Shown one piece after another: positions 7,881 through 63,008 of a stretch of 64,000 nt of DNA. Both the position numbers and the translations under genes were made by a program. Positions within the stretch are counted from its first letter, which is position 1; every line of letters starts with the position of its first letter. The notes under the pieces are model-generated. The model did no database searches, had not been told where the DNA came from, and saw only the letters and a program-made list of their open reading frames with translations. This DNA is from an uncultured Gammaproteobacteria bacterium (GTDB taxonomy: Bacteria; Patescibacteriota; Patescibacteriia; Patescibacteriales; UBA12075): positions 47,592 to 111,591 of the forward strand of contig CAYWNT010000003.1 in assembly GCA_964459725.1 (NCBI GenBank). The letters run 5' to 3'.

Positions 7881-7898
7881 TAAATTTATATTTGGATT

Positions 7899-16607: not shown

Positions 16608-16676
16608 TTTAGAGGCTTTTTTTTAAATTCGATTAATACTAAGGCGTGGGAGAAGTCAGAAAAAAGTGTTCTTTTC

Positions 16677-17236: not shown

Positions 17237-17275
17237 AAAAAAAACCACTTATTAACAAGTGGTGAATTTTTTTCT
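17237..17275. terminator. bidirectional-looking terminator downstream of tsaB
   Basis: aaaaaaa-ccactt-attaac-aagtgg-tgaattttttt: 6-7 bp stem flanked by an A-run and a T-run. Confidence 0.45.
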
Positions 17276-17358
17276 TACTTTAACTAAAAATTACGATTTT
17301 TCCACAAAAACAGGCAAACAAACTATCACTGTCCGCCGTTACTGGCGGATGTTATGTG

Positions 17359-45986: not shown

Positions 45987-46712
45987 TTAACAACTTTCAG
46001 CTCCCTGCTTAGCTTCACCTAAGATACTTAGCCATTCATCAATTTGTGTAAGCGCTTCATCCTTGGATAATTGCGCCTTTTTATGTCCTGCAAACACATG
46101 CTGAAAATCTAACGTTTTAATTTCTGACAAGGTTTTTACATAATTCGCCACTGAAGAGTTTGGTAATTGAAAAATAATTTCTCCCTGATATAAAACATCA
46201 GCAGTAAATATTAATCCACTATTACGCTCCAGTAAAACACACGAATCGTCTGAATGTCCTGGCCCAGGCAATATATCAAATGTTAAATCACATACAGATA
46301 TAAAGCTATTTTGAATAACAGATTCTTTTCTTGGGCAGATATTAAATGAGTCGGAAAAATCTCTTATCCGATCTGCTTCTTTTATCAAAAAATCCGTTTC
46401 TGCTAAATACTCATTAGCCCATAATCCCCTATCAAGATTTTGAAAAACCTTCGGGGTCAACAGTATTTCTTCCGGCAAAAAATCACCCATTCCACCTGCA
46501 TGATCAAAGTGGGAATGGGTGATGAATACTTTTATCTTTCTAAATCCCTGTTCAAACAAAAACGCTTTTAAATCTGCGTACCCCAACCCCGAATCAATAA
46601 CCAAACACTCATCTTTGTTGCCTACTACAAAAATATTCGCCCTTTCATCCTTGCTATAAAAAGATTCGGTTACCAGCCACACATTCTCAAGAAGCTTTTT
46701 TATCTCAAACAT
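45987..46712 (-). CDS. MBL-fold metallo-hydrolase
   Basis: 241 aa; HxHxDH motif (ITHSHFDHAGG) plus downstream His/Asp ligands. Confidence 0.8.
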   Translation of the reverse strand: MFEIKKLLENVWLVTESFYSKDERANIFVVGNKDECLVIDSGLGYADLKAFLFEQGFRKIKVFITHSHFDHAGGMGDFLPEEILLTPKVFQNLDRGLWANEYLAETDFLIKEADRIRDFSDSFNICPRKESVIQNSFISVCDLTFDILPGPGHSDDSCVLLERNSGLIFTADVLYQGEIIFQLPNSSVANYVKTLSEIKTLDFQHVFAGHKKAQLSKDEALTQIDEWLSILGEAKQGAESC

Positions 46713-48325: not shown

Positions 48326-48532
48326 ATCCCCTTCTCCTGTTTATAAATGATTAATTGTCACATGACTTAATATTACTCGTGACTTTTTAATGCCTCCTGG
48401 ATCATTATTAATTATAGAAAATTATATTATGAACAATTAAAAAGCATAGCTCAAAGACATACTTTTGTCAATTAAAATTCGAACGTCCGATTCGGGTATA
48501 AAAAAATAAGGCTAGTATTGACCTTATTTTAA

Positions 48533-48548
48533 TTTGCTCCCGGGGTCG
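48533..48548. repeat. outermost partial copy of the tRNA-Asn 3' end (candidate original attL of the older integration)
   Basis: ttgctcccggggtcg matches 62934-62948; sequence diverges after 16 nt. Confidence 0.45.
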
Positions 48549-48787
48549 CCTGCCTGCCGGCAAGGCAGGGATTCCCTCCTATGCTCTTCGAGCTTCGGCG
48601 GGTGAACTTCTCATCACGGCCTACAAAAACAAAATAAAAACACCTCGAATGAGGTGCTTTTATATTTGCTCCCCTTAATGAACAAGTTTAGAACTATTAA
48701 TTGGAATAAAATCAATGAAAAATTAATAAAAATAAAAAGCGGATGTTGACTTTACGTCTCACCGCTTGTTTAATTTTGTTATTCTTT

Positions 48788-49219
48788 TTAATTTTGTTTT
48801 GTTGCCTGATGCCCAATGTAATAAACCCTCTCGCACTTATCACACTTCATCCTGAGAGGCGACTTTATAACATCTGCCCAAACATTAATGTCTTGGCAAA
48901 ATACAAAGCCAGTACTCCTAACTATGCCTCCCCTGCAAAATGAACATTTAAATCCATTGTCCTTAGCTTTGCTTTCTTTTGACCTCCATTTATACAAAGG
49001 GGTGGCGCCTGAATAAACATCATTCTCATTTTCAAAAACATAAAAACAATGAGATTTTGGATGATTTTTTCTAGCAATCGAAAAGGCTCCTCTTGGGCTT
49101 TTGGAATATACTTTTTCTATCACAGGTGCAGGATTTGAATGAAGTACAAAATATACATTTTTTGTTCCCCCATTGGAGAAATTGGATATTCCGCATTGTT
49201 GAAGTAATTGCGGTTTCAT
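48788..49219 (-). CDS. Cys-rich hypothetical protein within the remnant element
   Basis: 143 aa; CxxC pairs (CSFCRGG, CDKCERV). Confidence 0.4.
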   Translation of the reverse strand: MKPQLLQQCGISNFSNGGTKNVYFVLHSNPAPVIEKVYSKSPRGAFSIARKNHPKSHCFYVFENENDVYSGATPLYKWRSKESKAKDNGFKCSFCRGGIVRSTGFVFCQDINVWADVIKSPLRMKCDKCERVYYIGHQATKQN

Positions 49220-49461
49220 TATAAAACCTCCCTATTTCAATTGAAGTTAAATAGATATTATCTAAATCAGTAGAAATACTTACAATTCATTTTAATACCC
49301 TCCAGGATAAAATTTTAAACTTATATTTTTTATTGTAAAGAACAAAAAAAGTATAACATATGTTATACTTTTTGTCAAGCAAGCTCCCGGTACATTCAAC
49401 TCTGAAGTGCAACACCTGTCTTTTCATAGAATACCTCATAAGGTGTATTACTACGGATATG

Positions 49462-49809
49462 TTTAACCAAAAGCTAAAAGAATATAAAGAAAGGCAACAA
49501 GAAATAAATGATAAATTGCAGACTTTAGATGTTGCTGATGAAGACTATTATATCACCGTAAACACAGTACTATCTCTTGCTCAGCGGGCATTAGAAATAT
49601 TTGAAAGTTCTGAAGTGTCTGAAAAACGACAACTTCTCAATTTTCTACTTCGGAACCTTGAATTGAGAGGAAAAAAGTTGGAATATAAGCTAAAAGCACC
49701 GTTTGATACGGTGCTTAAAGCGAACGAGTGTTCTGATTTGCTCCCGGGGTCGGATTCGAAGGGTTCAAGCCCCAACACCATCAACAATTCACAATTCTAC
49801 TTCTTGTAA
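49462..49809 (+). pseudogene. C-terminal fragment of a large serine recombinase (truncated remnant)
   Basis: EKRQLLNFLLRNLELRGKKLEYKL / LLPGSDS parallels TKKEILSIIGSNLTLKDNILNISL / LLPGSDS at the C-terminus of the intact recombinase. It reads into the att repeat in the same frame. N-terminal catalytic and zinc-ribbon parts are missing. The annotated ATG lies inside a 28-bp perfect palindrome (49346-49373). Confidence 0.45.
49738..49760. repeat. 23-nt direct repeat of the tRNA-Asn 3' end (attL of the intact element / tRNA-proximal att of the remnant)
   Basis: ttgctcccggggtcggattcgaa identical to 62934-62956. Confidence 0.6.
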
Positions 49810-50180
49810 CCGTTCAACTATAATACATTATTCTGCTGCACTTAAACACTTCTCAGCTCGATTCTCATCACAAACCACAGATACCAAATATAAAAACACC
49901 TCGAATGAGGTGCTTTTATATTTGCTCCGCGGAATATATGAAGTTAGAACCTCTATTTGTCTAAAACAAACATGCTTTATTAAATAAATTTGAAATACTT
50001 AGAGGGGGGGGCTACCCGAAAACTTCCCTTTTTGATTTAAAATAAAATTGGCCTCTGTGAAATTTGCATCAATTTTCAGAAAATGATGTGTTTGATGTCG
50101 GTGATGTTTTTTTTAAATCATTTTAAATATTTATAAAAACCTACAAAAAAAGCGAATTATATATAATTCGCTTTTAATAA

Positions 50181-50711
50181 TCACTTCTTTAATTGAAGTA
50201 GTTTATTTGACTGAAAAAAATCTTCAATACTATTTACATTCCACCAACCTTTTAATCTTGGCTTATAAATGAAATCTTGTAGATGAAATGGTATTTTCCC
50301 TGGATTTAATTCATAGCCCTCACTATTTTCTCCTCTAATATGAACTAAATGGTCCCCTTTAAATGTTTTACCAAGGCGCAAAACAACCCTTCTAATTGCT
50401 ATATCATGTATATGAGCATTATCTGTTTCTTGAATATTGTAGTCAATTTTTGAATTCACATTTGAAACATTTGTATCATATACATCGCTTGCATTCATCA
50501 GAAGCCAGTTTAATAATCCGATATTAGATTTAAAAAACTCATAATAAGCATCTTCATACAATATAATAGCAAAATCTCTCGAAATAACAGTGTCACACCA
50601 TGAATATGCCACCCTCCAACCATTGATTCCATATAAAGCATCCCATTCTTCTTTGAAAACAATTCTCCTTTTTCCAAAATAACCTGGTCTTCTAATTGTC
50701 TCCCAACTCAT
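50181..50711 (-). CDS. hypothetical protein (cargo gene, co-transcribed with the LOG-like gene)
   Basis: 176 aa; 10-bp gap from the upstream gene; no motif recognised. Confidence 0.45.
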   Translation of the reverse strand: MSWETIRRPGYFGKRRIVFKEEWDALYGINGWRVAYSWCDTVISRDFAIILYEDAYYEFFKSNIGLLNWLLMNASDVYDTNVSNVNSKIDYNIQETDNAHIHDIAIRRVVLRLGKTFKGDHLVHIRGENSEGYELNPGKIPFHLQDFIYKPRLKGWWNVNSIEDFFQSNKLLQLKK

Positions 50712-50721
50712 TATCCACCTC

Positions 50722-51264
50722 TTATGGATTTTTTTGATTAATTAGTTTTAATATCTTTTTTACTGCATCTTCTGGGCTTGATGCTGACTCAACCTTCATT
50801 CTTTTCCTACTATCTAAATATTTTCCCACCATCATGTCAGATGAGCCCCCTGTGCCCTTTATTGCAACAATAGGAATATGAAGCTGATATGCCACCAGCA
50901 TTTCATTTAGCGTCCCAGATCCACCTGATACAGTTATTATTCCGTCACAACTATTTACTAAAACAAATTCTCTCCCTCCACCTCTTTCCATGCCACTACA
51001 GATAACAACATCAGCATATTTATTACCTCCCCAAACTTCTTTGCCCTTACCATATGTGATTCCAACAACTAGTCCGTTTTCTTCCTTGGCCCCCTTAGCT
51101 GCAGAGGTTGAAAGAGAATCAACGTCTTTTTCAGCACCATAAACAAGTATACTCCCAGTTTTAGCAACTTCTTTTCCTATATTTTCAGCAATTAATTGGT
51201 TTTTTTTTGAATTTTTGGTGTCCGCTGCTGATCCCATTACACCAATTTGTAATTTTCTTTTCAT
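50722..51264 (-). CDS. LOG/TIGR00725-family Rossmann-fold nucleotide-binding protein (nucleotide 5'-monophosphate nucleosidase-like)
   Basis: 180 aa; VSGGSGTLNEM matches the LOG PGGxGTxxE motif; N-terminal IGVMGSA. Confidence 0.65.
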   Translation of the reverse strand: MKRKLQIGVMGSAADTKNSKKNQLIAENIGKEVAKTGSILVYGAEKDVDSLSTSAAKGAKEENGLVVGITYGKGKEVWGGNKYADVVICSGMERGGGREFVLVNSCDGIITVSGGSGTLNEMLVAYQLHIPIVAIKGTGGSSDMMVGKYLDSRKRMKVESASSPEDAVKKILKLINQKNP

Positions 51265-51286
51265 TTATTATTATTATTATTATTAT
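51263..51286. repeat. (TTA)7 / (TAA)7 trinucleotide microsatellite abutting the LOG-like start codon
   Basis: ttattattattattattatta read on the plus strand; on the minus strand it gives seven in-frame TAA codons immediately before the ATG. Confidence 0.8.
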
Positions 51287-51355
51287 TAACAAAATAACTA
51301 TACATCTTTTTTAAAAAAATGTAAAGGACTAAAAAGTGGCTACAAGATTATTCTC

Positions 51356-51389
51356 AATAAAAAACCCACGAATTTTTTTATCGTGGGTT
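51356..51389 (-). terminator. rho-independent terminator between the PRTase-like and LOG-like genes
   Basis: 9-bp stem aacccacga/tcgtgggtt; U-tract on the minus strand. Confidence 0.55.
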
Positions 51390-51398
51390 ATATTAATT

Positions 51399-52412
51399 TT
51401 AGTACTCGTGACACAGATCTGACAAGTAATCCGTAACATATGAATCAAGCCTAGGAAACCTTCTAAAGCCAATATTTATAGGAATAGATATTTTTGGTTT
51501 GATATCAAGTAAATCACCTATCAAAATTTTATTTTCGTTCATGCTGTCTATCGCTCTAAATAACTCAAGCGTCCAAGATGCACAAAACCTAGAAAGCTCA
51601 ACTTGATGTTTCTCAGAAATACTTGCCCATTTATTCAAAGGAGCAAATGGCATTATATATGGCATAGAATATGTAGCCCCTTCTTTTGAGTAAAATGGAT
51701 ACAATTCTTCTCCCATCTTTAATCCAAGCACTCTTCCACAATTAGGAATAAATGGAACAAAATCGTGATCTGGCATCCAATCAATCAAGTTGTCAAATTC
51801 CTCAACCACAATAAGTTCCCCATCAAACTGAGACTTAACCTTGTCTATGGCATTTGGAAATGAAAAACCAACGACTATTGCTTCAACATCTAAATTGTTT
51901 TCATTAAATTTTTCCAAGATATTTATCAAAGTTCTTCCACTAAATATACCATCTTCCATTAAAATCAATGGCTTTCTTGCGCTACCAAAAGTCTTGTTCT
52001 TGATATTAATGATTTGATCACTAATTGATGGCGTTCCTGGCCTTGGTCCAATACCAATCACATCACCTGCTTCATTAACTAACCTGTTAATATTAAGAAC
52101 AAATCCGTTTTCATCCATTGATTCATCCATTCTGCTGATTTCAGAACAAGTGCTTATAATATCAGCATTTTTAAGCAAAGCCTGTCTTTTAAACGTTTTA
52201 CTTACAATTTTTTCTGCCAACTCCCTTGTGTTTATGGCAACCACATTTGCTTCTGGGAATGAAAGCTCTACATACTTTAAAATCTCACTTTCCAAATCAT
52301 CAAATATTTTGTCATTTGGAGATGGTGTTTTTATTCCAAATCTGTTAAATACACCTACTTTTTCTCTCACATCAAATGTCAAAATATAAGTTCGTTTATG
52401 CTTTTTCTTCAT
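51399..52412 (-). CDS. type-I phosphoribosyltransferase-domain protein with ~130-aa N-terminal extension
   Basis: 337 aa; PRPP-binding loop KPLILMEDGIFSGRTL (hhhhEDxhxSGxTh). 28-bp gap from hisS, so probably co-transcribed. Confidence 0.45.
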   Translation of the reverse strand: MKKKHKRTYILTFDVREKVGVFNRFGIKTPSPNDKIFDDLESEILKYVELSFPEANVVAINTRELAEKIVSKTFKRQALLKNADIISTCSEISRMDESMDENGFVLNINRLVNEAGDVIGIGPRPGTPSISDQIINIKNKTFGSARKPLILMEDGIFSGRTLINILEKFNENNLDVEAIVVGFSFPNAIDKVKSQFDGELIVVEEFDNLIDWMPDHDFVPFIPNCGRVLGLKMGEELYPFYSKEGATYSMPYIMPFAPLNKWASISEKHQVELSRFCASWTLELFRAIDSMNENKILIGDLLDIKPKISIPINIGFRRFPRLDSYVTDYLSDLCHEY

Positions 52413-52440
52413 TGCACTTCCTCCTATATTAGCTAAAATT

Positions 52441-53760
52441 TTATTTAATAATTCTGGTTAAGGCATCATCAAATGACATGAGAGATTGTTCTCCTGTAAC
52501 CATGTCCTTCAAGGCCACCTTATTTTGGCTTCTTTCATCCTCACCAATAATAATTACATAAGGAATCCCTTTCCTGTTGGCATAGGATAATTTTTTTGAG
52601 AATTTATCATTTTCGACATATACTTCAGTTATGACACCAGCAGATCTTAACTGTGTAGCTACTTCAAATGGGGACTGGAGATTATCATCCAATGAAACAA
52701 CCAAAACTTTTGTCAAAGAAAGTTGTTCGGCTTTAATTATGCCAGCCTCTTTCAGCTGATAAAAAAGTCTTGTTAATCCAATTGAAATACCCACTCCAGG
52801 CAATTTATTGTTCGTATAACTTTCTGCCAAGTTGTCAAATCTGCCACCAGAACAAACTGATCCAATTTTAGGGTAGTCTGTTAACAATGTTTCATAAACA
52901 GTGCCCGTATAATAATCAAGTCCTCTAGCGATAGACAAATCAATAATAAAATTATTCTCAGGAACATTCAAATTACGAATATTCTGAATAACAACAGCAA
53001 GTTCCTCTACTCCTTCAGAGAATAACTTATTTTCAATTGACAGATTCTTCAAATCGCCAATAATAGAATCATTATCTCCTTTAATGCTCAAGAACTTCAG
53101 CAGGTCATCAACACCGTCATTTGAAACGCCAAGTTCAATCAGTTCTTTGGAGACCTCTTCTTCTCCGATTTTCTCGATTTTGTCAACAACTCGAAGAATT
53201 TCAGTAGAAGAAACTTCTGTGCTTAAATTCTGAAAAAATCCATTTAGAATTTTCCTATTATTAATCCTAATGAGAAAATTTTCAAATCCCAGAGATTTAA
53301 ATGTGAAATAAATCACACTTGGAATCTCGGCGTCATGGTGAAGACTCAAAGAACCGTTTCCAATGATATCAATATCACACTGATAAAATTCCCGAAAACG
53401 TCCTCTTTGTGCACGTTCTCCTCTGTGAACTTTGCCAATGTGGCAACGTCTAAAAGGAAAGGTTAATTCAGAATAATACTGACTTACATATCTCGCCAAA
53501 GGCACAGTTAAATCAAACCTTAAGGCAAGCTCATTTTTACCCTTTTTGAATCTGTAAAGTTGCTTTTCAGTTTCGCCGCCAACTTTCGCAAGTAACACCT
53601 CTGCTTTTTCAATGTCTGGTGTGTCAATCGGAGTAAAACCGAATAACTCATAACACTCCCGAATGGTACTCATCATCTTATTAAACAATAACTGATCAGC
53701 AGGAAGTAACTCCATAAATCCAGAAGGAATTGATGGTTGAACAATGTTGTTTTTCTTCAT
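52441..53760 (-). CDS. hisS: histidyl-tRNA synthetase, full length with anticodon-binding domain
   Basis: 439 aa; class II motifs; HisRS signatures RGERAQRGRFREFYQCD, ARGLDYYTGTVYE, GGRFDNL; C-terminal anticodon-binding fold (VLVVSL...IPYVIIIGEDE). No T-box seen upstream. Confidence 0.85.
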   Translation of the reverse strand: MKKNNIVQPSIPSGFMELLPADQLLFNKMMSTIRECYELFGFTPIDTPDIEKAEVLLAKVGGETEKQLYRFKKGKNELALRFDLTVPLARYVSQYYSELTFPFRRCHIGKVHRGERAQRGRFREFYQCDIDIIGNGSLSLHHDAEIPSVIYFTFKSLGFENFLIRINNRKILNGFFQNLSTEVSSTEILRVVDKIEKIGEEEVSKELIELGVSNDGVDDLLKFLSIKGDNDSIIGDLKNLSIENKLFSEGVEELAVVIQNIRNLNVPENNFIIDLSIARGLDYYTGTVYETLLTDYPKIGSVCSGGRFDNLAESYTNNKLPGVGISIGLTRLFYQLKEAGIIKAEQLSLTKVLVVSLDDNLQSPFEVATQLRSAGVITEVYVENDKFSKKLSYANRKGIPYVIIIGEDERSQNKVALKDMVTGEQSLMSFDDALTRIIK

Positions 53761-53951
53761 AATCCTATCTCCTATTTAGATGGTTAATATTTATGCAATA
53801 TGATTATTATAACAAAATAATAATTTTAAGCAATAATTTCAAAGAACTACTAAATCCGTACACCTTAGCATAAAATTTAATAGTTGTCAATAGCAAAAAC
53901 CCGCATATAAAGACTCTTTATGTCTCCATAACAAAAACACATAAACATACT

Positions 53952-53984
53952 AAAAAATGCCTAAAATTAGGCATTTTTATTTTC
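53952..53984. terminator. weak bidirectional terminator between hisS and the nuclease gene
   Basis: aaaaaatgcctaaaattaggcattttt: 6-bp stem with flanking A-run and T-run. Confidence 0.4.
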
Positions 53985-54087
53985 TCAATCTAAGAGCTAC
54001 TCTATTTATAGTTCATCGCTATTTGACCACTTCTAAAACTACATCACACTTAATTAAAATCCATATACTGATAATATACAACTGTTA

Positions 54088-55170
54088 TTATTTCCCAGAT
54101 TTCCTTCTGTTGCACTCTTTGCATAACATTTGGCAATTTTTTTCAATTGATTTCCCTCCCTCGTGCCAAGGTGTTATGTGATCAGCTTCCATTCTTTCTA
54201 TCTCAAATTTTTCCTTACATGCTTTACAAATACCTTTTTGCTTCTCGTAAACCTTTTGCTTAACTGCATCAGTAAATGCACGAATAGAAAGATATTTTTC
54301 ATTACGGGTTAAAATGTATGGATAGATACCGCTCTTTTTTGTGACATCATCATCAAGTATTAACCTTTCTGTTTCTTCTTCAATTTCCTTTGTATTATAT
54401 TTCTCATCTTTATATGCATTATAAAGAATACCCCAATCAACACCTTTCATAAACTTTCTTTTTTTGATAAAAGTCGTATTTACCCAAGTCATTACATCTT
54501 GAAAATATCGCCATAAAGCTCCCGCATTTTGGTCGTGCTGATGGTCGGACATATATTCTTCTATTTTGTTATTAGAAATCCATTTAATCGCTGTTTCAAG
54601 ATAATCTTGACGAATTGGCGAGCCATTTAGATAATCACCTCCTGTCTGATAGGCAACGCAACCATTTTTACTAAAATATCGTTTTGCATCAGTAACCCAA
54701 GTTCCAGAATAAACAGCGTTTCGGAGTTCTTGTTCTGTTAATTTTTCACCCGCAATATTTATTGTTTTAAACCAATCTAATTTTTCACTATCTGTTCCGC
54801 TACACTGATAAACAGTGAGTTTATAATCCAAAATCTGTTCTCGTTTATCCTTTGGCAAATTATGAAAAGCCATGCCGTTGATTGAAAAATCTCCTTCGGC
54901 ATATTGGCAAATTGAAATGGTACGTTGTTGACCATCAATAATTTCAAAATTCCCATCTTCACGAACAGCCCAATACATCACATTAAGAGGAAATTTTTTT
55001 GTAATAGTATCAATAACCGCATCCCTTTGTTTGTCTTTGTAAATAAATTCTCTTTGGTAAGGAGGGCGAATATCAAGCTTACCACCATATCCAACAACAC
55101 CATCCTCAGCATTGTCTTTAAAATCCTTTATCAATTCACAAATAGTTATTTCTTTTAATTGTATTTTCAT
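54088..55170 (-). CDS. DUF262 (ParB-like nuclease superfamily) fused to C-terminal HNH endonuclease; GmrSD-like putative restriction endonuclease
   Basis: 360 aa; N-terminal RPPYQREF...IIDGQQR (DUF262 DGQQR signature); C-terminal CKACKEKF...EADHITPWHEGGKS...CQMLCKECNRRKS (HNH). Confidence 0.75.
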   Translation of the reverse strand: MKIQLKEITICELIKDFKDNAEDGVVGYGGKLDIRPPYQREFIYKDKQRDAVIDTITKKFPLNVMYWAVREDGNFEIIDGQQRTISICQYAEGDFSINGMAFHNLPKDKREQILDYKLTVYQCSGTDSEKLDWFKTINIAGEKLTEQELRNAVYSGTWVTDAKRYFSKNGCVAYQTGGDYLNGSPIRQDYLETAIKWISNNKIEEYMSDHQHDQNAGALWRYFQDVMTWVNTTFIKKRKFMKGVDWGILYNAYKDEKYNTKEIEEETERLILDDDVTKKSGIYPYILTRNEKYLSIRAFTDAVKQKVYEKQKGICKACKEKFEIERMEADHITPWHEGGKSIEKNCQMLCKECNRRKSGK

Positions 55171-55189
55171 AATAAAATCTATTAAAAAA

Positions 55190-56266
55190 CTAAAGTTTTT
55201 TATTTTTAATAAGTATTCTTTTATATATAAACTTACCAGCTACCATTGGTGCTCCCCCTTTATCGGCAAATCCTTTTATGTGATATCGATTTCCTTCATT
55301 TGCAATGTTTGCATCGGCCCTACCAACAATTTCAAACTGCTCAGGATTATGTTTATCCATAAATGTAATTGGAACACCCATTACGCCCTTATAATCAATT
55401 GGAATTTCTGCAACCTTATTCACATTTATAGCCTTGTAATTATCGTATTTCGGATATTCATCCTCGTTTCCCTTATACATTTTATAAAGAACGATATCTT
55501 CGTTGTGCTTTTCTACCTCAAGATTTGTGAACCAACATGAAGTAGAAACACGAGCTATTTTATTTCCATCGTCATCAATATGATGATATTTTTCCCAGTT
55601 ATCTGGGACAACAAAAAACATTCCAACATTAAAATTTGTATATCCCGTTCTAAACCTGTTTTTTTCGATTAATTTAAAAATTTCTTTGTAGGTTATTGCA
55701 TTTGTATTTCCTATTATTAGAAATTTTTTATTATATTCTTCTAGTTGCTCGACAAATTTACGGAACAAAGAAAATGGTGGGTTGGTTACGACAATATCCG
55801 ATTCTTTTAAAATTTTCACAGATTCCTCACTCCTAAAATCACCATCTCCTTTAAGCGGGGTTGCAACATTTTTATCATGCTTCAAAAGCCATTCAACATC
55901 CGCCATACTTACAGCACCATCATTATCAAGATCTTTAACTTCATTTATTTCAATTTTCATTGGCTCTTTTTTCTTTGCTGTTTTTAATCCTTCTACTTCG
56001 AGCAAGGAAAGTTGTCCCCCAACAACGGGCGACCCCGCATAGCTTGTGGCAATAAGTTTTTTAAGACCAAGTACATTGAAACTAGAAGCAAAATATTTAA
56101 AAAAGCTACTTTCAAACGGATCATCCGCATTGCAATAAACAGTTTTATTTTTAAATTGTTTTTTGTAATATTTTAACTCTTTTTCTATATCAGAAAGCTG
56201 AGTATAAAACTCATCCTTCTTTGCTTTATTTGCTTGTCTTAAGTTTTTATTGGAAAATTTAGGCAT
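55190..56266 (-). CDS. N6-adenine DNA methyltransferase, EcoRI-methylase-like family (call from memory)
   Basis: 358 aa; N-terminal KAKKDEFYTQ and catalytic NPPF (VVTNPPFS). 19-bp gap to the downstream nuclease gene, so operonic. Confidence 0.65.
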   Translation of the reverse strand: MPKFSNKNLRQANKAKKDEFYTQLSDIEKELKYYKKQFKNKTVYCNADDPFESSFFKYFASSFNVLGLKKLIATSYAGSPVVGGQLSLLEVEGLKTAKKKEPMKIEINEVKDLDNDGAVSMADVEWLLKHDKNVATPLKGDGDFRSEESVKILKESDIVVTNPPFSLFRKFVEQLEEYNKKFLIIGNTNAITYKEIFKLIEKNRFRTGYTNFNVGMFFVVPDNWEKYHHIDDDGNKIARVSTSCWFTNLEVEKHNEDIVLYKMYKGNEDEYPKYDNYKAINVNKVAEIPIDYKGVMGVPITFMDKHNPEQFEIVGRADANIANEGNRYHIKGFADKGGAPMVAGKFIYKRILIKNKKL

Positions 56267-56327
56267 AGTTCAACACTTCTACACCGACTGTTTGTGTTTT
56301 TGGGTATCAAAAAAGGACAGCCGAGGT

Positions 56328-56448
56328 GTTGAACCACAATAGTTCATCCCGAGGGAATCCCTAATCGTAGAACTCGACTGCCCATTCCAGCCTACGATTA
56401 GGCAAAAAATGGGCAGTTTCCGCTCAGGATATTCTATTGTGGTTCAAC
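56328..56448. other. 121-nt region of nested and interleaved perfect inverted repeats (candidate structured RNA, origin or operator)
   Basis: A gttgaaccacaatag 56328-56342 / A' 56434-56448 (15 bp); B cctaatcgtag 56360-56370 / B' 56392-56402 (11 bp); C ctgcccatt 56378-56386 / C' 56408-56416 (9 bp). Order A-B-C-B'-C'-A' is pseudoknot-compatible. Confidence 0.5.
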
Positions 56449-56583
56449 ATTTTTAATTTACCACTAAAATAATAAAAAATCAACCTTGCTACCCAGTGCT
56501 ACTCACTATATTTCAGCTTGATTTTTCGCCAAAATTAAAGTAAGATATAGGCAATATTACTATTATAATTAGATGACATTATT

Positions 56584-57741
56584 ATGAAAATTGAGCTTAT
56601 TATTGAACAATTAAAAGATTATTTCAATTCTCCAAAAACCAATTTTGAAAATTGGGATTTCTATATTAATCTATCTGAATATGTTGAATTTATTAATAAT
56701 ACGCCAGAATTAAAAGCAGAAGTAAAAAAACTTGAGAAAGAAAGAGATGAGTGTTACAAGAAATATTATCAACTAAGGAATAAATCCTGGGAAGAAATAA
56801 AAAAATCAGGAAATCAATTATTAACAATATTAGATGCAAATAAAATATCAAAGATAAAAGATAATGAGTTAATAGACGAAATAAAAGAATTAAAAGGCTT
56901 TGTTGCTGGGACGGTTTTATACGGTGAAAAAAAGCCAGTCAGTATTATAAATCGTTTACTTGACGATATAGCTGTGCATCTTGCAAATGATAAAAAAGGA
57001 AAGCTAGTTGAAAAATTTATTAATTCCAAAAACCCATCTCGATTTATATTTTCAAAAACTCTGCCTTTATTTTGTGAAATGGAACGTGATATTGAAGATA
57101 ATTTAGAAAATGAAAAATGGCATTATTGGTATATGTTGAAAGATATACCAGACATCATTAAATTGCCTCTTAACAAAAGTATTTCTATTTCTAACAAATA
57201 TAGCAATCTACCCTATGAAGAATATAAGTATTATTTTTTGTTTTTTGAAATCAAAAGAGATTTTAAAAAAAATCAAGGAAAAATTAATCAATATATGAAG
57301 CAAGATATTCTTAAATATAAAAATTATTTTCAAAGTATAAATAATTATTTGATAAAACAGCTGTTCAACCAAATAAAAGAACAAGACAAAAAATATAATT
57401 TTGAGTTCCGCGAAAATTATCTTTACTATAATGAACGAAAAGGAGATAAAAAATTTCTTGATGAAGAACAACATGCACACACACTCAGATTTATTATTGT
57501 TAACCGAGAAAAACCTTTGATTTTATATAATGATATTAAAAATTATCTACATGATTCAAAAATAAAATTAAAATTGAAAAAATCGTTTACTGAAAGCGAC
57601 AATCAATATAATATAAACAGAGCTATTGTGCGCCATTGCGACACGATAGAAAAATATATTAAAAAAGATTTTCCAGAACTAGAAAATAATAAAATTTTTG
57701 AACAGATACCGAATCAAGGAATTGAATTTTTGTTAGACTGA
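56584..57741 (+). CDS. hypothetical Lys/Asn-rich protein (element gene); terminator hairpin at 57771-57793
   Basis: 385 aa; extremely AT-rich codons; no motif recognised. Confidence 0.5.
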   Translation: MKIELIIEQLKDYFNSPKTNFENWDFYINLSEYVEFINNTPELKAEVKKLEKERDECYKKYYQLRNKSWEEIKKSGNQLLTILDANKISKIKDNELIDEIKELKGFVAGTVLYGEKKPVSIINRLLDDIAVHLANDKKGKLVEKFINSKNPSRFIFSKTLPLFCEMERDIEDNLENEKWHYWYMLKDIPDIIKLPLNKSISISNKYSNLPYEEYKYYFLFFEIKRDFKKNQGKINQYMKQDILKYKNYFQSINNYLIKQLFNQIKEQDKKYNFEFRENYLYYNERKGDKKFLDEEQHAHTLRFIIVNREKPLILYNDIKNYLHDSKIKLKLKKSFTESDNQYNINRAIVRHCDTIEKYIKKDFPELENNKIFEQIPNQGIEFLLD

Positions 57742-57907
57742 TTTTTTTTAAAATAATTTTCGTCTGTTAATAGCCATTCGTGGCTATTTTTTTATTTTAA
57801 AATAAGTTAAAAATATTTTACAACCGCTAATTATCGCTAATGTGACATTGTGAAATAATTATAATAGATGTTCGAACAAACAAATTAATAAACTAATAAA
57901 AATTACT

Positions 57908-58159
57908 ATGACAAAAATATTAAATGAAAGAGATTTTTTCAAAACAGCCGATCTGAGCCTAGCATCCAGCCTTCGTTATTATGGCTATATAGTCGAGGCT
58001 ATTGATAGGCAAAACCCTAAAAAAGTAGAATTTTTATTCATTCGTGATAATGACTTAGATAAGATAATCCATCAATTTTGGTCACGTTTGCTAACTGTCG
58101 AACCAGTTGCTTATTTCGGTTTCATTAAGGAATTAAAAAATAGATTATACTCAGAATAA
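57908..58159 (+). CDS. hypothetical small protein
   Basis: 83 aa. Confidence 0.45.
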   Translation: MTKILNERDFFKTADLSLASSLRYYGYIVEAIDRQNPKKVEFLFIRDNDLDKIIHQFWSRLLTVEPVAYFGFIKELKNRLYSE

Positions 58160-58161
58160 AT

Positions 58162-58323
58162 ATGAACCTTTCAGATCGGCAAATTACCAAATTTCAAGAA
58201 TTATATTATAACCGCTTTGGTGAAAAAATAAACCGAGAAGTGGCTCTTGAGCAAGGGATAAAACTTGTACGGTTAATGGAGTTGGTATTTAAACCTGCAA
58301 ATGATTCTGAAATTAAGGAATAA
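58162..58323 (+). CDS. possible unannotated small ORF (53 aa), tightly packed between neighbours
   Basis: Own translation: MNLSDRQITKFQELYYNRFGEKINREVALEQGIKLVRLMELVFKPANDSEIKE. ATG 2 nt after the upstream stop; the next gene starts 25 nt after its stop. Confidence 0.35.
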   Translation: MNLSDRQITKFQELYYNRFGEKINREVALEQGIKLVRLMELVFKPANDSEIKE

Positions 58324-58348
58324 TATCAAATAAATTACAATTAATATT

Positions 58349-59809
58349 ATGAACAATAACATTGAAAAATTACCGCCACAAAATATTGAAGCCGAACAAT
58401 CATTGCTCGGAAGTTTAATAATGGATAATAACGCAATAAGCAAAATCGGTGAATTATCAGAAAAAGACTTTTATAATGATAATCACAAAAAAATATTCTC
58501 TTGCATGAAAGAAATGAGCGATTGCGATATTATTAGTTTAACGGATAGATTGATGGAAAAAGATCTATTATCGAAAATTGGCGGGCGGGCGTATTTAGCT
58601 AAATTAACTAATTGCGTTATAACATCCACTAATGTAAGCAAACACGCTGAAATTATCCGAAAAAAGGCTATATTAAGACGATTAAACCATGTTGCTAACG
58701 AAATCAACGATCTAAGCTACAAAGAAGACGAGAATATAGACAAACTTCTAGATCAGGCTGAAAAAAAATTAAATAGGATTACTAATTCTTACACTGTAAA
58801 AAAAGCTCATTTCAAAATAGTTAAAGGCGATGAATTAATTGACATGAAAGAGCTTAAAACTCCTTACATTGTCGACAAGCTAATTCCTGAAGGAGCTATC
58901 ACTGCTATCACTGCCGATAGCGGACGTGGCAAATCATTGATAACATTAATACTCGCCTATCATATAGCTGGTGGTAAAAAATTGTTTGATATATTCGAAG
59001 TTAAACAAAATAGAGTATTAATCATCGATCAAGAGATGGATAACGATGTTATTTTGGGCAGATATAAGGCAGTAGTAAAAGAAAAAAATATTCCTATTGA
59101 TTTTATATATAACCAATTCTTGCAAATTGACTACGATAAAGATTATAAGTGGTTGATAAAAACTATTAAGGAGAAAGGATATAAAGTAGTGGTGTTTGAT
59201 ACATTAACCAACCTGCACTCTAAAAGCGAAAACTCCGCCGATGAAATGAAAGAAGTAAACAAGAAACTATTAAACTTAATTCATGAAACAGGCGTTTCAA
59301 TTATTTATCTACATCATCACAAGAAAAGACAACAAGGTGAAAATTTCAGTCAATCATCTTCAAGAGGAAGCACGGAAATAATTGCCAAGGTTGCCTCTCA
59401 TATTTTAATAGACAGTAAACACTGGATAGAGGATGAAATTACACATCTTAAATTAACTCTACAACAAGAAAAAGCTAGACGACCTGACAGGATAAGCAAA
59501 ATCGGCGTAAAAGTATTTTATGATCCATACTTAAAAGAGACTCATTGGGAGTATTTAGGAGAAATCAATGACAAAGAACAAAAAGCAGAAGAAGCAAAAA
59601 AGTTTATTCTTAACACCCTAGAATCAACCACATGGCTATCAATAGCTGAATTTAAAGAAAAAATGAACGATGGTAATTTAAAAATTGGAGAAAATAACTT
59701 AAGAGATGCTTGCCGAGATTTAGTCAAAGAAAAGAAAATCATAGAAGAATTAGGAAAAAACATCGAAAAAGAACAAAAACGAGCTAAATACTATAATTTA
59801 AATGAATAA
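58349..59809 (+). CDS. replicative-helicase-like protein: DnaB N-terminal domain fused to RecA-like/AAA_25 ATPase (plasmid/phage RepA-type)
   Basis: 486 aa; NIEAEQSLLGSLIMDNNAISKI...DFYNDNHKKIF (DnaB_N); Walker A TADSGRGKS; Walker B VVVFDTL. Confidence 0.7.
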   Translation: MNNNIEKLPPQNIEAEQSLLGSLIMDNNAISKIGELSEKDFYNDNHKKIFSCMKEMSDCDIISLTDRLMEKDLLSKIGGRAYLAKLTNCVITSTNVSKHAEIIRKKAILRRLNHVANEINDLSYKEDENIDKLLDQAEKKLNRITNSYTVKKAHFKIVKGDELIDMKELKTPYIVDKLIPEGAITAITADSGRGKSLITLILAYHIAGGKKLFDIFEVKQNRVLIIDQEMDNDVILGRYKAVVKEKNIPIDFIYNQFLQIDYDKDYKWLIKTIKEKGYKVVVFDTLTNLHSKSENSADEMKEVNKKLLNLIHETGVSIIYLHHHKKRQQGENFSQSSSRGSTEIIAKVASHILIDSKHWIEDEITHLKLTLQQEKARRPDRISKIGVKVFYDPYLKETHWEYLGEINDKEQKAEEAKKFILNTLESTTWLSIAEFKEKMNDGNLKIGENNLRDACRDLVKEKKIIEELGKNIEKEQKRAKYYNLNE

Positions 59810-59887
59810 AATTATCTTATTACTTGTTAATACTATATATAGTTTAATAATTAACAAGATAAATGGGTATACCCCATAAGTTAACTT

Positions 59888-60265
59888 ATGAAGTGTAAAT
59901 ATATCAAATCAAACAAAAAACGGTGTGATTCTAATGCGTTAAACGGAGATAAATACTGTTTTTGGCATTCAGACAATATAAATGATGCTGAAAAACAAAA
60001 AGCCAGAATAACTGGTGGTAAATCAAATATATCAAAAATAACCAACCCTCTCCCTCCTATGGAGATAAACGAGCCTGATGATGTTGTGAATTTACTAGCT
60101 GACACAATCGAGCGTGTACGAAATGGAGAAATGGACGTAAAAATTGCAAACTGCCTTGGCTTTCTTTCAAGTCATCTCATTAAAGCACTAGAACTGTCGA
60201 ATTTAAAAAATAAGGTCGAGGCAATAGAAAAAGTGTTTTATGAAAGAAAAATAAATATTAGATAA
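59888..60265 (+). CDS. hypothetical protein with N-terminal zinc-finger-like Cys cluster
   Basis: 125 aa; CKYIKSNKKRCDS...CFWH. Confidence 0.45.
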   Translation: MKCKYIKSNKKRCDSNALNGDKYCFWHSDNINDAEKQKARITGGKSNISKITNPLPPMEINEPDDVVNLLADTIERVRNGEMDVKIANCLGFLSSHLIKALELSNLKNKVEAIEKVFYERKINIR

Positions 60266-60267
60266 AT

Positions 60268-61158
60268 ATGAAAATTGATATTAAAAAACTATCAAAAGGA
60301 TCAAGTGCTCAAGATAAAGCAAGACTATTGTTTGCCAACCGTAATTTGCGAGGAGATACTGAACGCAAAGAAAACCTAATAGCACCCTCCGAAGAAGAGG
60401 CTATAATTGAAGATGCTCGAAAAAATAACCAAATAGCCGAGATAAATAAATACAACCAGCTATATAATTTGAATATATTTTCAATGCTTGATTTACAAGC
60501 TACGTTTTCTAATTTTCAGCTTGCAAAAAGTAGATTAGATATAGTTATTGTTGGATCAATGGTTAAAGGCGAAATGGATGATATAATTGGAGAAATATTC
60601 TACCATCTTGAAAATCAAAAAAAGAAAGAAGGTAAAAGTGATAATGAAGTAAATGCGTATTTTAATAAATTGGAACAAATAGAAAAGAAATACAAAAATA
60701 AATCACTAATTCAATCTTTTGATCATTTTGACCCGCCATTGATTAATCCAGATGAAGACAGAGAAAAATATAAAAAAACGATACAGCCAAATAAGTATAT
60801 TCAAATTAGATTTATGGATGTAGTGGATAGTATTAAAGATTATGAGAAACAGCTATATCTTGTTGACTATTTTAACAGGCAAGCAGGATTTAACTTATTA
60901 AGCGACAAACAAATAAAATCAATTGAAAGATATAAAGTTGAGATAGATGAATTTATCAATCTAAGAGGTGTAGAATTATCATTAAACATATATAAAAAAT
61001 TTGCCGAAAAAAAACTAATGCGAACTACCGATTTGCACAAACCATTGTTTCTTAAGACACTTAACAACCTCAAACAAGCCATCGAGCTAACTAATGACGA
61101 AATAAAATCCGTCGAACTTGAAGCCAAGGAATATATTAATCGAGAAATTCCTTTTTAA
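60268..61158 (+). CDS. hypothetical protein (element gene)
   Basis: 296 aa; 2-nt gap from the upstream gene; no motif recognised. Confidence 0.5.
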   Translation: MKIDIKKLSKGSSAQDKARLLFANRNLRGDTERKENLIAPSEEEAIIEDARKNNQIAEINKYNQLYNLNIFSMLDLQATFSNFQLAKSRLDIVIVGSMVKGEMDDIIGEIFYHLENQKKKEGKSDNEVNAYFNKLEQIEKKYKNKSLIQSFDHFDPPLINPDEDREKYKKTIQPNKYIQIRFMDVVDSIKDYEKQLYLVDYFNRQAGFNLLSDKQIKSIERYKVEIDEFINLRGVELSLNIYKKFAEKKLMRTTDLHKPLFLKTLNNLKQAIELTNDEIKSVELEAKEYINREIPF

Positions 61159-61352
61159 TTTAATCTATTAGCCTGTATATTGAAATTATTACTGTTTATG
61201 CTATACTATAAGTGCTTACCTAATACAATAAATACGCAAAGGTTTTTTAATTGTCGCCTGAAATGGGCGGTTCTACCGATAATTTTTTACCTTTGTGTAG
61301 ATGTATTGGGTAAGCTAGAACCGTCCTTTTTTGTTTACTAAATTATAATTAT

Positions 61353-62975
61353 ATGGAAACAAATAACAAAAAAACCAAATATTTCCTTTACGCTAGAAAA
61401 TCTAGTGAATCTGAGGACAGGCAAATGGCATCAATTGATTCTCAAATAAAAGAACTAGAAACTATAGCCAAACAAAATAATCTTGATGTAATAGAAACTT
61501 TCTCAGAATCTATGTCAGCCAAATCACCTGGGAGACCAGTTTTTAATGAAATGATAAGTAGAATTAAAAAAGGAGAGGCTAATGGTGTTATTTGTTGGAA
61601 ATTAAATAGGCTAGCTAGAAATCCAATAGACGGGGGAGAAATAAGTTGGATGATTCAACAAGGCATCATTGAGCATATCCAAACCTTTGGCAGAAGTTAC
61701 TACCCTACTGATAACGTAATAGTTATGGCAGTAGAACTGGGCATGGCAAATCAATTTATTAGAGATTTAAGTGTGGACACCAAAAGAGGGCTTAAAAGCA
61801 AAGCTGAAAGAGGCTGGTATCCAACATTCTCAGCTATGGGCTATATGCATAATCCATATAAATACAAAGGAGAAAAAGAAATAATCAAAGACCCCGAAAG
61901 GTTTTATTTAGTCAGGAAAATGTTTGATCTAATGCTAACTGGAATACATACTCCTCCTCAAATATTGAAAACAGCTACAGAAGAATGGGGTCTCCGAAAT
62001 AAGAAAGGAGGAAAAATTGCTAATAGCACTATTTATAGAATATTTAGTGACCCTTTTTACTATGGAGAGTTTGAATGCCCAAAAGGAAGTGGTAATTGGT
62101 ATAGGGGCAAACATGAGCCGATGATAACCAGAAAAGAATTTGATAACATTCAATTTTTACTTGGGAGAAAATGCAAACCCAGGGCTAAAACAAAACAATT
62201 CCCTTTTACAGGAATGATTAGATGTGGTGAATGTGGTGCTATGATAACCGCAGAAGATAAAGTAAAAAGACAAAAAAATGGAAATGTACATTATTATACA
62301 TATTACAGATGCACTAAACGTAAAGACCCGAATTGCACTCAAAAAACTATTAGAAAAGAATTACTTGAAGAACAAATAGTAAATGAGCTTGAAACAATAG
62401 AAATTCCAAGAGAATTTACAGAATGGGCATTTGACGTTATTAAAACTGAAAACAAAAAAAATTATTCTAGTAGAAATAATATTATTTCAAATCAACAGAA
62501 GCTCTATGATGAATGCTTAAGGAAACTTGATGGACTTATAGACATGAGAGCTAACAATGAGATAAACGCTGATGATTTCAACAGGAAAAAAACTGAATTA
62601 ACAAAAGAAAAAGAAAGAATACAGAAACTTCTTAAAGACTCTGATAAAAATAATGACAACTGGATTGAATCAGCTGAGAAGTTATTTTTGTTTGCTGAAA
62701 ACGCTAAGACTACTTTTCAGGATGGAGATATAAATACAAAGAAAGAGATACTATCCATTATCGGTTCGAACCTCACCCTAAAAGATAATATACTCAATAT
62801 TTCATTGAACAAAACTCTAGAACTCATAAAAAACATCTCTCCAGAGGTAAATACCATTCAAAAACGGTTAGAACCTCTCAATATGCCCGAAGATAAGCAA
62901 AAACTCTGGGCAAATTATGCCCAGAGTCCTATGTTGCTCCCGGGGTCGGATTCGAACCGACGACCAATTGATTAA
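61353..62975 (+). CDS. large serine recombinase (integrase) of the element
   Basis: 540 aa; resolvase-type catalytic domain (YARKSSESEDRQMASIDSQ...WKLNRLARN), recombinase domain, zinc ribbon (CGECGAMITAED...YYRCTKRKDPNC), coiled-coil C-terminus; the 3' end overlaps the tRNA-Asn 3' end. Confidence 0.85.
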   Translation: METNNKKTKYFLYARKSSESEDRQMASIDSQIKELETIAKQNNLDVIETFSESMSAKSPGRPVFNEMISRIKKGEANGVICWKLNRLARNPIDGGEISWMIQQGIIEHIQTFGRSYYPTDNVIVMAVELGMANQFIRDLSVDTKRGLKSKAERGWYPTFSAMGYMHNPYKYKGEKEIIKDPERFYLVRKMFDLMLTGIHTPPQILKTATEEWGLRNKKGGKIANSTIYRIFSDPFYYGEFECPKGSGNWYRGKHEPMITRKEFDNIQFLLGRKCKPRAKTKQFPFTGMIRCGECGAMITAEDKVKRQKNGNVHYYTYYRCTKRKDPNCTQKTIRKELLEEQIVNELETIEIPREFTEWAFDVIKTENKKNYSSRNNIISNQQKLYDECLRKLDGLIDMRANNEINADDFNRKKTELTKEKERIQKLLKDSDKNNDNWIESAEKLFLFAENAKTTFQDGDINTKKEILSIIGSNLTLKDNILNISLNKTLELIKNISPEVNTIQKRLEPLNMPEDKQKLWANYAQSPMLLPGSDSNRRPID

Positions 62976-63008
62976 CAGTCAACTGCGCTACCGCTGCGCT
63001 ACCCGGGA
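62937..63008 (-). tRNA. tRNA-Asn (anticodon GUU)
   Basis: Manual fold: acceptor UCCCGGG/CCCGGGA, D-stem GCGC/GCGC, anticodon stem GUUGA/UCAAU, loop CUGUUAA, T-arm GUCGG-UUCGAAU-CCGAC, discriminator G; CCA not encoded. Confidence 0.85.

Follow-up and report, generated by a model that had tools for sequence, protein, structure and literature searches.

A hisS–phosphoribosyltransferase–SLOG gene block, conserved on Patescibacteria chromosomes, as probable cargo of an integrative element at a tRNA-Asn gene

The DNA analyzed here is a 64,000-nucleotide stretch (the window) of contig CAYWNT010000003.1, assembly GCA_964459725.1, from an uncultured member of the Patescibacteriota, and the subject is a four-gene block carried in it by an integrative element at a tRNA-Asn gene. 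The block encodes histidyl-tRNA synthetase (HisRS, gene hisS), a phosphoribosyltransferase (PRTase), a protein of the SLOG superfamily, and a 176-aa protein. An earlier note, made from the sequence of the window alone, had described four co-oriented open reading frames (ORFs) with gaps of 28 and 10 bp. All of them were confirmed on the minus strand (Table 1); the gaps are 28 bp between the hisS and PRTase genes, 134 bp between the PRTase and SLOG genes, and 10 bp between the SLOG gene and the gene of the 176-aa protein.

The hairpin terminator placed by the earlier note at 51356-51389 was upheld by folding: it has a 9-bp stem and a 9-nt loop with a ΔG of −15.8 kcal/mol (z = −5.1), and 0 of 200 shuffled sequences were as stable. 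The pattern scan missed this hairpin because of its 9-nt loop. The spacing of the genes, the hairpin after the PRTase gene, the promoter-like site downstream of it, and another hairpin upstream of hisS make a layout of two transcription units reasonable. The block therefore likely consists of a hisS–PRTase unit and a unit in which the SLOG gene and the gene of the 176-aa protein are likely co-transcribed.

The block lies within an intact element of approximately 13.2 kb (about 49761-62935), which is inserted at the tRNA-Asn gene by a large serine recombinase. The 22-bp repeat TGCTCCCGGGGTCGGATTCGAA occurs exactly at 49739-49760 and 62935-62956, with 0 matches expected by chance. In this element family, the recombinase ORF extends by approximately 40–200 nt into a tRNA gene of opposite orientation, namely tRNA-Asn in the window and tRNA-Trp in the related locus L063 (recombinase at 12067-13854, tRNA at 13656-13727); thus, the coding sequence of the recombinase C-terminus spans the attachment site. 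A stretch of about 100 nt on the inner side of the left junction (around 49887-49959) is repeated on the inner side of an older tRNA fragment. The displaced and degenerate tRNA fragments, the C-terminal remnant of a recombinase abutting the displaced fragment, and the duplicated left end indicate that two related elements integrated successively, in tandem, at the same tRNA, the older one being reduced to about 1.2 kb. All eight contigs bearing the PRTase gene show the same arrangement.

Codon composition agrees with these boundaries. The G+C content at third codon positions (GC3) was 0.22 in the gene of the 176-aa protein, 0.24 in the SLOG gene, 0.28 in the PRTase gene, and 0.30 in hisS, compared with 0.19–0.28 in the rest of the element and 0.27–0.42 (mean of about 0.35) in 21 backbone genes. 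GC3 of the four genes thus fits the element and not the backbone, hisS alone being ambiguous, and third codon positions fail to show the backbone-like GC content ascribed earlier to hisS and the LOG-like gene.

The closest homologues of the element's helicase were found in elements with other cargo (L063, L064, and L065). These relatives came from a search of protein homologues, while scans of viral and metagenome contig collections with the helicase revealed no related element. In both L063 and L065 the helicase comes after an unknown protein and DUF5659, and a serine recombinase ends the element; L064 shares the helicase alone. The recombinase gene of L063 runs into the tRNA-Trp gene, which is the same architecture as in the window. 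L065 has two 540-aa serine recombinase genes (4860-6482 and 15724-17346) about 10.9 kb apart, each closing a similar gene set, and looks like a pair of tandem elements such as inferred for the window. The cargo of the related elements includes radical-SAM genes with isochorismatase, hydrogenase-maturase-like genes with two restriction–modification (R-M) systems, and a nuclease; hisS, PRTase, and SLOG genes are carried by none of the three. L064 encodes HydF and two radical-SAM proteins (HydE/HydG-like) together with TaqI-type and MvaI/BcnI-type R-M systems (4775-8601 and 33-3442), and is a further case of metabolic cargo in the element family of this helicase.

The tRNA repeats, the abutting recombinase, the remnant with its left-end duplication, the related elements, and GC3 together identify the four genes as cargo of a mobile element, as the earlier note had proposed. 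A shorter element, confined to 54–63 kb and leaving the hisS, PRTase, and SLOG genes on the chromosome, was also considered and rejected, since no tRNA-Asn fragment was found between hisS and the R-M genes and the duplicated left-end sequence sits outside the four genes.

Table 1. Coordinates of the features of the element, the four-gene block, and related loci (window positions unless a locus is named)
Feature	Position	Strand	Description and basis
Decayed earlier element, in tandem	48523..49738		Degenerate tRNA-Asn fragment, left-end copy, 143-aa ORF, recombinase remnant
Degenerate (third) tRNA-Asn fragment	48523-48556		Repeat family search
Left-end sequence copy in remnant	48631-48703		81% identical to 49887..49959
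Serine recombinase C-terminus remnant	49360-49809	plus	phrog_95 integrase, E 6e-4; blastp match to the intact recombinase (residues 404-534), E 1.7e-5
attL	49739..49760		Displaced tRNA-Asn 3' end; 22-bp exact direct repeat
Element left-end sequence	49887..49959	plus	With hairpin terminator 49897-49912
Fourth gene	50711..50181	minus	176 aa, uncharacterised domain family; 10-bp gap to SLOG gene
SLOG gene	51264..50722	minus	180 aa, SLOG cluster 4/TIGR00725-like (LOG-related), GGSGTxxE motif
Promoter-like TTTACA-17-TATAGT	51325..51297	minus	Downstream of the 51389..51356 hairpin; pattern scan
Intrinsic-terminator-like hairpin and U-run	51389..51356	minus	Between PRTase and SLOG genes; folding versus shuffles
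PRTase-like gene	52412..51399	minus	337 aa, divergent type I phosphoribosyltransferase; PRPP loop and family-specific C-terminal third
hisS	53760..52441	minus	439 aa, histidyl-tRNA synthetase, intact catalytic motifs; TIGR00442, Pfam tRNA-synt_His and HGTP_anticodon
Bidirectional terminator-like hairpin	53953..53978	both	Between R-M genes and hisS; pattern scan
Type II restriction endonuclease	54088..55170	minus	GmrSD_N/ParB-like and HNH; Pfam; PADLOC REase_II, 441 bits
EcoRI-type adenine methyltransferase	55190..56266	minus	PF13651, 439 bits; PADLOC MTase_II
Element core	56584..61158	plus	385-aa unknown, DUF5659, DnaB_N/AAA_25 helicase (58349-59809), 125-aa and 296-aa unknowns
Large serine recombinase	61353..62975	plus	540 aa (Resolvase, Recombinase, Zn_ribbon_recom); 3' end overlaps tRNA-Asn
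tRNA-Asn(GUU), intact	62936..63008	minus	The window's single tRNA; the repeat at 62935-62956 forms attR
Distant PRTase paralogue	L020 13118-13996; L023 14281-15159; L028 14404-15315; L030 7578-8555		No Pfam match
tRNA-His directly downstream of hisS	L001 9365-9441; L015 13335-13411; also L016, L020, L023, L024, L026, L027, L028, L029, L041, L046

Two ORFs outside the element were also recorded. Just beyond it, at 45987-46712 (minus strand), lies an ORF with a metallo-beta-lactamase fold, for which a precomputed Pfam match to PF23023 (Anti-Pycsar_Apyc1) is available; our Pfam scan gave Lactamase_B alone. PF23023 is a family of anti-defence enzymes degrading cyclic nucleotides. A probable secreted protein of 598 aa is encoded at 43648-45444 (plus strand); its tandem repeats of approximately 300 nt are 74% identical and encode Pur_ac_phosph_N/fn3-like domains.

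The HisRS of the block matched TIGR00442, the hisS equivalog model, with 401.1 bits (cut-off of 286.75), and its HGTP_anticodon domain comprised residues 352-438 according to Pfam. Class II motif 2, the HisA motif (RGLDYYTG), and motif 3/HisB (GGRFD...G.G....R) were all present, and motif 2, HisA, and motif 3 were conserved in each of the 21 aligned HisRS sequences, including that of the window. The search for a HisZ identity was negative: TIGR00443 reached 179 of the required 272 bits, and the NF0089xx HisZ models without exception remained far below their cut-offs. The protein is thus a full-length HisRS and not a HisZ-like paralogue, as had been noted earlier, and it is most likely an active synthetase. 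The tRNA scan revealed no tRNA-His in the element. No second hisS was found in the window or within 10 kb beyond its left end.

The 337-aa PRTase contains the phosphoribosyl pyrophosphate (PRPP)-binding loop LILMEDGIFSGRTL, scored as LILMEDGIFSGRT against the type I PRTase pattern (a hydrophobic run and two acidic residues followed by xxx[ST]GxT), with which it agrees. Five residues of the loop (E153, D154, G155, G159, and T161) were invariant across 44 homologues, and the canonical loop recognized in the earlier note is therefore confirmed. The family includes 197 homologues of approximately 333–345 aa. PF00156 was matched by 34 of the 44 members, while the window protein itself had no PF00156 match at E <= 0.01. 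The AlphaFold2 (AF2) model built from 44 homologues had a predicted local distance difference test (pLDDT) score of 94 and formed one compact fold. Foldseek related this model to OPRT and HGPRT with a probability of 1.0 and TM values from 0.27 (query) to about 0.5 (target), the resemblance to solved OPRT, HGPRT, and APRT chains being through the core alone. In a profile search of PDB sequences, similarity was confined to the PRPP loop. The loop upholds the assignment to type I PRTases; the PF00156 matches of the family and the Foldseek probability agree with it, the low TM values and the missing PF00156 match of the window protein less so.

The hallmark of the family is a conserved C-terminal third with the motifs DWMPDHDFxPFxPNCGRVxG, PYxxPF, and WA. 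The unrecognized N-terminal domain of about 130 aa suggested by the earlier note is probably not a separate domain, given the compact AF2 fold and the long Foldseek alignments to whole OPRT/HGPRT chains, which span 150–216 columns. An identity with PRTase-CE (PF24390) was considered and rejected as incidental: the match reached 20.1 bits against a gathering threshold of 27 (E 6.6e-4), just 2 of the 44 family members matched the model, and a literature search for this name returned nothing. The nearest homologues of the PRTase are less than 50% identical to it. The PRTase is a member of a divergent, uncharacterised family almost wholly restricted to Patescibacteria.

The 180-aa protein matched PF18306 (SLOG cluster 4) with 98.9 bits (gathering threshold of 26.3), its residues 4-167 aligning with positions 1-150 of the 151-position profile. 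Its score with TIGR00725 was 99.7 bits, narrowly below the cut-off of 106.9. Canonical LOG models were not reached (TIGR00730, 32 bits against 96; NF058542, 26 bits against 300), and PF03641 was borderline (27.3 against 27). The closest solved structure was TM1055 (1RCU; E 4e-17), followed by a molybdenum-cofactor carrier (2IZ5). The motifs QIGVMG, RGGGRE, and GGSGTxxE, including their polar Arg and Glu residues, were conserved in 18 SLOG homologues encoded near hisS and PRTase genes. The scores and the GGSGTxxE motif bear out the earlier description of this protein as LOG/TIGR00725-like.

The neighbourhood of the PRTase family was surveyed in one GTDB genome per species, the source genome of the window not being among these representatives. 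The survey included 46 PRTase-family loci, nearly all from Patescibacteria according to their titles. ORFs of these loci were searched with the window proteins, the neighbours were clustered, and cluster representatives were scanned with Pfam; each neighbourhood is annotated in part. Of these loci, 17 had a SLOG gene near the PRTase gene and 18 had hisS there, while 13 had both; order and orientation varied widely. Homologues of the element's recombinase, helicase, R-M, and other genes were found in 0 of the 46 loci.

In a Falkowbacteria chromosome (L001), genes of the PRTase (48% identical), SLOG protein (63%), and HisRS (41%) are adjacent and lie among genes of ribosomal protein S1, FtsH, and lipid genes. 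In a Moraniibacteria genome, hisS, PRTase, and SLOG genes follow the order and strand of the window, with hisS and the PRTase gene overlapping by 8 nt; this block is flanked by UvrB, a two-component system, and a gene of an AspRS/AsnRS-type (tRNA-synt_2) synthetase. Recurring neighbours of the three genes encode a sensor kinase (12 loci), two families of HAD hydrolases (9 and 4 loci), an AstE/AspA-like hydrolase (8 loci), an inosine-uridine nucleoside hydrolase (IU_nuc_hydro; 3 loci), a PNP/UDP-family phosphorylase (PNP_UDP_1; 3 loci), and a second, distant PRTase paralogue (4 loci). The latter, of approximately 285–300 aa, has the C-terminal motifs ERDFxPGxPxSGR and PYxxPFG...WASIP and stands beside the three genes in four genomes.

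The hisS, PRTase, and SLOG genes are a conserved chromosomal neighbourhood of Patescibacteria and lie alongside enzymes of nucleoside and nucleotide salvage. Their joint recurrence on chromosomes, outside mobile elements, answers the question of neighbourhood conservation that the earlier note had raised, and the salvage enzymes among the recurring neighbours agree with the nucleotide-centred theme proposed there. The possibility, named in the same note, of an ordinary salvage PRTase in a conserved chromosomal context stands with regard to the context; "ordinary" does not apply to so divergent a family.

A second clade of the PRTase family, mostly labelled Saccharibacteria and Paceibacteria (about 19–20 of the 46 loci), has no hisS or SLOG gene nearby. 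Its PRTase gene is flanked by genes of a Trp-repressor-like protein and of a tyrosine recombinase, and lies a few kb upstream of pentose-phosphate genes. RpiB, Rpe, and transketolase were confirmed by Pfam in one member, and the clusters recur in 10–11 loci.

We consider that the element probably carries a hisS–PRTase–SLOG block of housekeeping and salvage genes, captured as cargo, and not an immune system. The decisive evidence for capture is the conservation of the three genes on Patescibacteria chromosomes without genes of the element. The earlier note had offered a captured housekeeping hisS as its conservative alternative; capture is retained, while the idea of hisS alone is not, the whole hisS–PRTase–SLOG block having been taken.

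The defence reading advanced in the earlier note holds that the PRTase and SLOG proteins make or process a nucleotide signal, the synthetase serving as sensor or target, and that the mobile element carries the block as a system of anti-phage defence or conflict. Predicted conflict systems centred on nucleotides do include SLOG-superfamily proteins and SLOG–PRTase pairs (YpsA clade; PMC6459960), and the block adjoins an R-M system on a mobile element. PADLOC gave the four proteins stray weak matches only (Csn2, E 1.6e-4; PRTase_III-A, E 0.0099), the latter counting, along with the PRTase-CE match below its cut-off, in favour of this reading. None of these matches is significant, in contrast to the strong matches of the adjoining R-M genes, and PRTase-CE touches 2 of the 44 family members compared with 34 for PF00156. 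No effector, sensor, or partner of the signalling-cyclase type is present. Recurrence in defence islands or on mobile elements was not observed: the neighbours annotated in related loci serve housekeeping or salvage, the 46 loci contain no homologues of the element's genes, and the broad presence of the genes in species representatives and their strong conservation are unlike the patchy distribution and fast turnover of defence genes. The methyltransferase/nuclease pair, which had been taken as a hint of defence, is real and was recognized by PADLOC, but as ordinary type II R-M cargo. We therefore regard a nucleotide signal or toxin system as very unlikely.

The linkage of hisS to the PRTase gene outlives many rearrangements. 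A HisRS paralogue that regulates a PRTase is well known from HisZ–HisG, in which it is the regulatory subunit of ATP phosphoribosyltransferase; HisG is not a type I PRTase. By analogy, HisRS and the PRTase, possibly with the SLOG protein, could be functionally coupled, HisRS or the status of histidine or tRNA-His being tied to the PRTase, and the element would then mobilise a working unit. As variants, HisRS could be a HisZ-like partner of the type I PRTase, or the pair could make or recycle a histidine- or imidazole-linked ribotide. The two genes are tightly apposed on one strand, by 28 bp here and with the overlap in Moraniibacteria, and the HisRS subtype of the window is encoded directly upstream of the PRTase in four of the examined genomes (the window, L014, L019, and L053). 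These bacteria have two HisRS subtypes in circulation, which can share one genome: L022 (2-1345 and 5274-6602) and L024 (2010-3332 and 5480-6856) each have two HisRS genes of different subtypes within a few kb of the PRTase gene, which leaves room for a specialised copy.

Against such coupling, none of these HisRS proteins, including both copies in L022 and in L024, has lost the catalytic motifs or the anticodon-binding domain, as fits an ordinary synthetase. A tRNA-His(GUG) gene lies immediately 3' of hisS in 12 of the 21 hisS-bearing loci, the Falkowbacteria locus counted, which fits a housekeeping role; two more loci have it within 3 kb, the positions otherwise being just upstream of hisS in L021 and 3 kb away in L053. 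Thus, hisS and its cognate tRNA-His gene behave as a conserved unit in the Patescibacteria loci. The HisG difference and the absence of hisS near the PRTase gene in the second clade point in the same direction. We consider functional coupling of HisRS and PRTase unlikely, and a specialised HisRS copy or HisZ-like coupling unlikely to decidedly so. A broader version, in which hisS, PRTase, and SLOG genes, with tRNA-His and the HAD and AstE/AspA-like partners found elsewhere, form one unit peculiar to Patescibacteria that couples histidine/tRNA-His charging to PRPP-dependent salvage, for example in the manner of HisZ acting on HisG, and that is mobile on serine-recombinase elements, appears decidedly unlikely.

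HisRS might also have been the selected cargo, as an essential or inhibitor-insensitive synthetase providing addiction or protection, with the PRTase and SLOG genes coming along. Mobile aminoacyl-tRNA synthetase (aaRS) genes conferring resistance are well established, ileS2/mupA protecting against mupirocin. The donor-type hisS–PRTase–SLOG arrangement has been kept, as would be expected of passive co-capture, and the two circulating subtypes can coexist. Chromosomal hisS usually has a tRNA-His gene behind it; the element has none, which suggests that the host may have a hisS/tRNA-His locus of its own elsewhere. On the other hand, nothing points to a natural HisRS inhibitor or to a cluster producing one, and the PRTase and SLOG ORFs are intact and normally conserved, as is expected of genes under selection and not of decaying passengers. 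Selection for HisRS alone is in our opinion quite improbable.

The fourth gene of the block differs from the other three, no homologue of it having been found beside them at the related PRTase loci. The 176-aa protein had no match in Pfam, NCBIfam, PADLOC, or PHROGs. Its AF2 model had a pLDDT of 95 and no fold match in PDB or among the viral models of BFVD. A profile search with this protein gathered 509 representatives, 267 of them at E <= 1e-30. Among 20 longer members, five contained a cytidylyltransferase-like domain (CTP_transf_like), two a PfkB kinase domain, and two a metallo-beta-lactamase (MBL) domain; proteins of the family listed as fusions are P0322, P0323, P0348, P0352, P0366, P0329, and P0380. 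Three examined contexts of the homologues look archaeal (DPANN-type), with CTP synthase and dCMP deaminase as neighbours or, alternatively, dUTPase, deoxynucleoside-kinase-like genes, DeoC, and PfkB. These fusions and neighbours point to a putative role of the family in nucleotide or nucleotide-sugar metabolism.

With capture of the block as the preferred explanation, the following course of events can be proposed; the activities, substrate, and benefit in it are those that we infer. The element would have taken the hisS–PRTase–SLOG block from a Patescibacteria chromosome, and the gene of the 176-aa protein would have been added or have been on the element already. The resulting cargo arm would comprise the type II R-M pair and the four-gene block with its two units. 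The PRTase would join a nucleobase to PRPP, yielding a nucleoside 5'-monophosphate, and the SLOG protein would perform the reverse kind of reaction, releasing the base and ribose-5-phosphate, or would bind such a nucleotide. Together, they could allow a genome without de novo nucleotide synthesis to interconvert scavenged bases and nucleotides and to recover ribose-phosphate. The block would thus supply an extra or replacement HisRS and salvage capacity, presumably to the benefit of the host or of the element. CPR (Candidate Phyla Radiation) bacteria rely on scavenged nucleosides and route their ribose into central metabolism (PMC5113843).

Several points weigh against this explanation. The activities of the PRTase family and of SLOG cluster 4 are predicted ones, and the nearest structures to the SLOG protein are 1RCU, of unknown function, and a cofactor carrier that binds its ligand and is not known to cleave it. 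A PRTase and a nucleoside monophosphate N-glycosidase working side by side would form a futile cycle if both used the same base. Plain salvage also leaves unexplained why the linkage with hisS, and often with tRNA-His, persists through many rearrangements, and why the HisRS subtype of the window stands directly upstream of the PRTase gene in four genomes. The fourth gene is outside the conserved set, so the block is no simple en bloc capture. The nearest PRTase homologues, at less than 50% identity, point to no particular donor lineage. Finally, the element's hisS is no more than a putative auxiliary copy, a second hisS having been sought and not found in the window and the 10 kb to its left.

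The searchable literature contains no account of a hisS–PRTase–SLOG cluster, in agreement with the earlier note, which knew of no system composed in exactly this way. Known already are the component superfamilies, the SLOG–PRTase pairing of the YpsA clade (PMC6459960), tandem elements at tRNA genes, and mobile aaRS genes. Three findings have no counterpart in the searchable literature: the PRTase family specific to Patescibacteria, the conserved neighbourhood that it shares with SLOG cluster 4, hisS, and tRNA-His, and the occurrence of this block on a mobile element. If the explanation is true, integrative elements of Patescibacteria move core housekeeping and salvage blocks besides R-M systems, in this case including a full aminoacyl-tRNA synthetase, which bears on how ultra-small symbionts with stripped genomes retain essential functions or recover them. 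Apart from the element, the PRTase family, its SLOG cluster 4 partner, and the hisS-linked neighbourhood are good targets for the biochemistry of salvage in CPR bacteria, and the 176-aa protein stands for a large domain family without annotation, which fusions connect with a kinase and a nucleotidyltransferase.

Among known systems, the salvage route of CPR bacteria and archaea (AMP phosphorylase, R15P isomerase, and RubisCO, with APRT and PRPP synthetase; PMC5113843) belongs to the same organisms and follows the same logic of recovering base and ribose-phosphate. Loci related to the block also hold nucleoside hydrolase or phosphorylase and pentose-phosphate genes. In contrast to this route, neither RubisCO nor AMP phosphorylase or the isomerase was found in the window or among the annotated neighbours of the related loci.

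At the level of the single proteins, the PRTase shares the PRPP loop and, it appears, the core fold of type I PRTases (PF00156: OPRT, HGPRT, APRT, UPRT), and most members of its family match PF00156. The known enzymes, however, have 170–230 aa compared with approximately 335 aa in the window family, whose conserved C-terminal third has no counterpart in solved structures, and the TM-scores are low. The SLOG protein resembles the LOG/SLOG superfamily in its PF18306 membership, the GGxGTxxE signature, and the Rossmann-like N-terminal glycine motif; it differs in falling below the cut-offs of the canonical LOG models and of TIGR00725. With HisZ–HisG, the block has in common a HisRS-family gene linked to the gene of a PRPP-using transferase. 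Unlike that pair, it encodes a true HisRS with an anticodon-binding domain, its PRTase is of type I, and its neighbours included no further his genes.

The pairs of YpsA (SLOG) and PRTase genes described by Burroughs et al. 2015, as cited in PMC6459960, are similar in that they, too, place a SLOG gene with that of a PRTase, in a neighbourhood that is conserved. The window differs from them in its SLOG cluster 4 protein, its other PRTase family, and the presence of hisS, tRNA-His, salvage enzymes, and housekeeping contexts. As for the element, it resembles serine-recombinase elements of tRNA genes in its tRNA 3'-end repeats, the recombinase at one end, the variable cargo arm with R-M genes, and the tandem copies. 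Tandem integrative elements at tRNA genes are familiar, and so are mobile aaRS genes such as ileS2/mupA. The element of the window differs from both in that no resistance role is evident and its cargo combines an aaRS with salvage genes from a conserved chromosomal neighbourhood.

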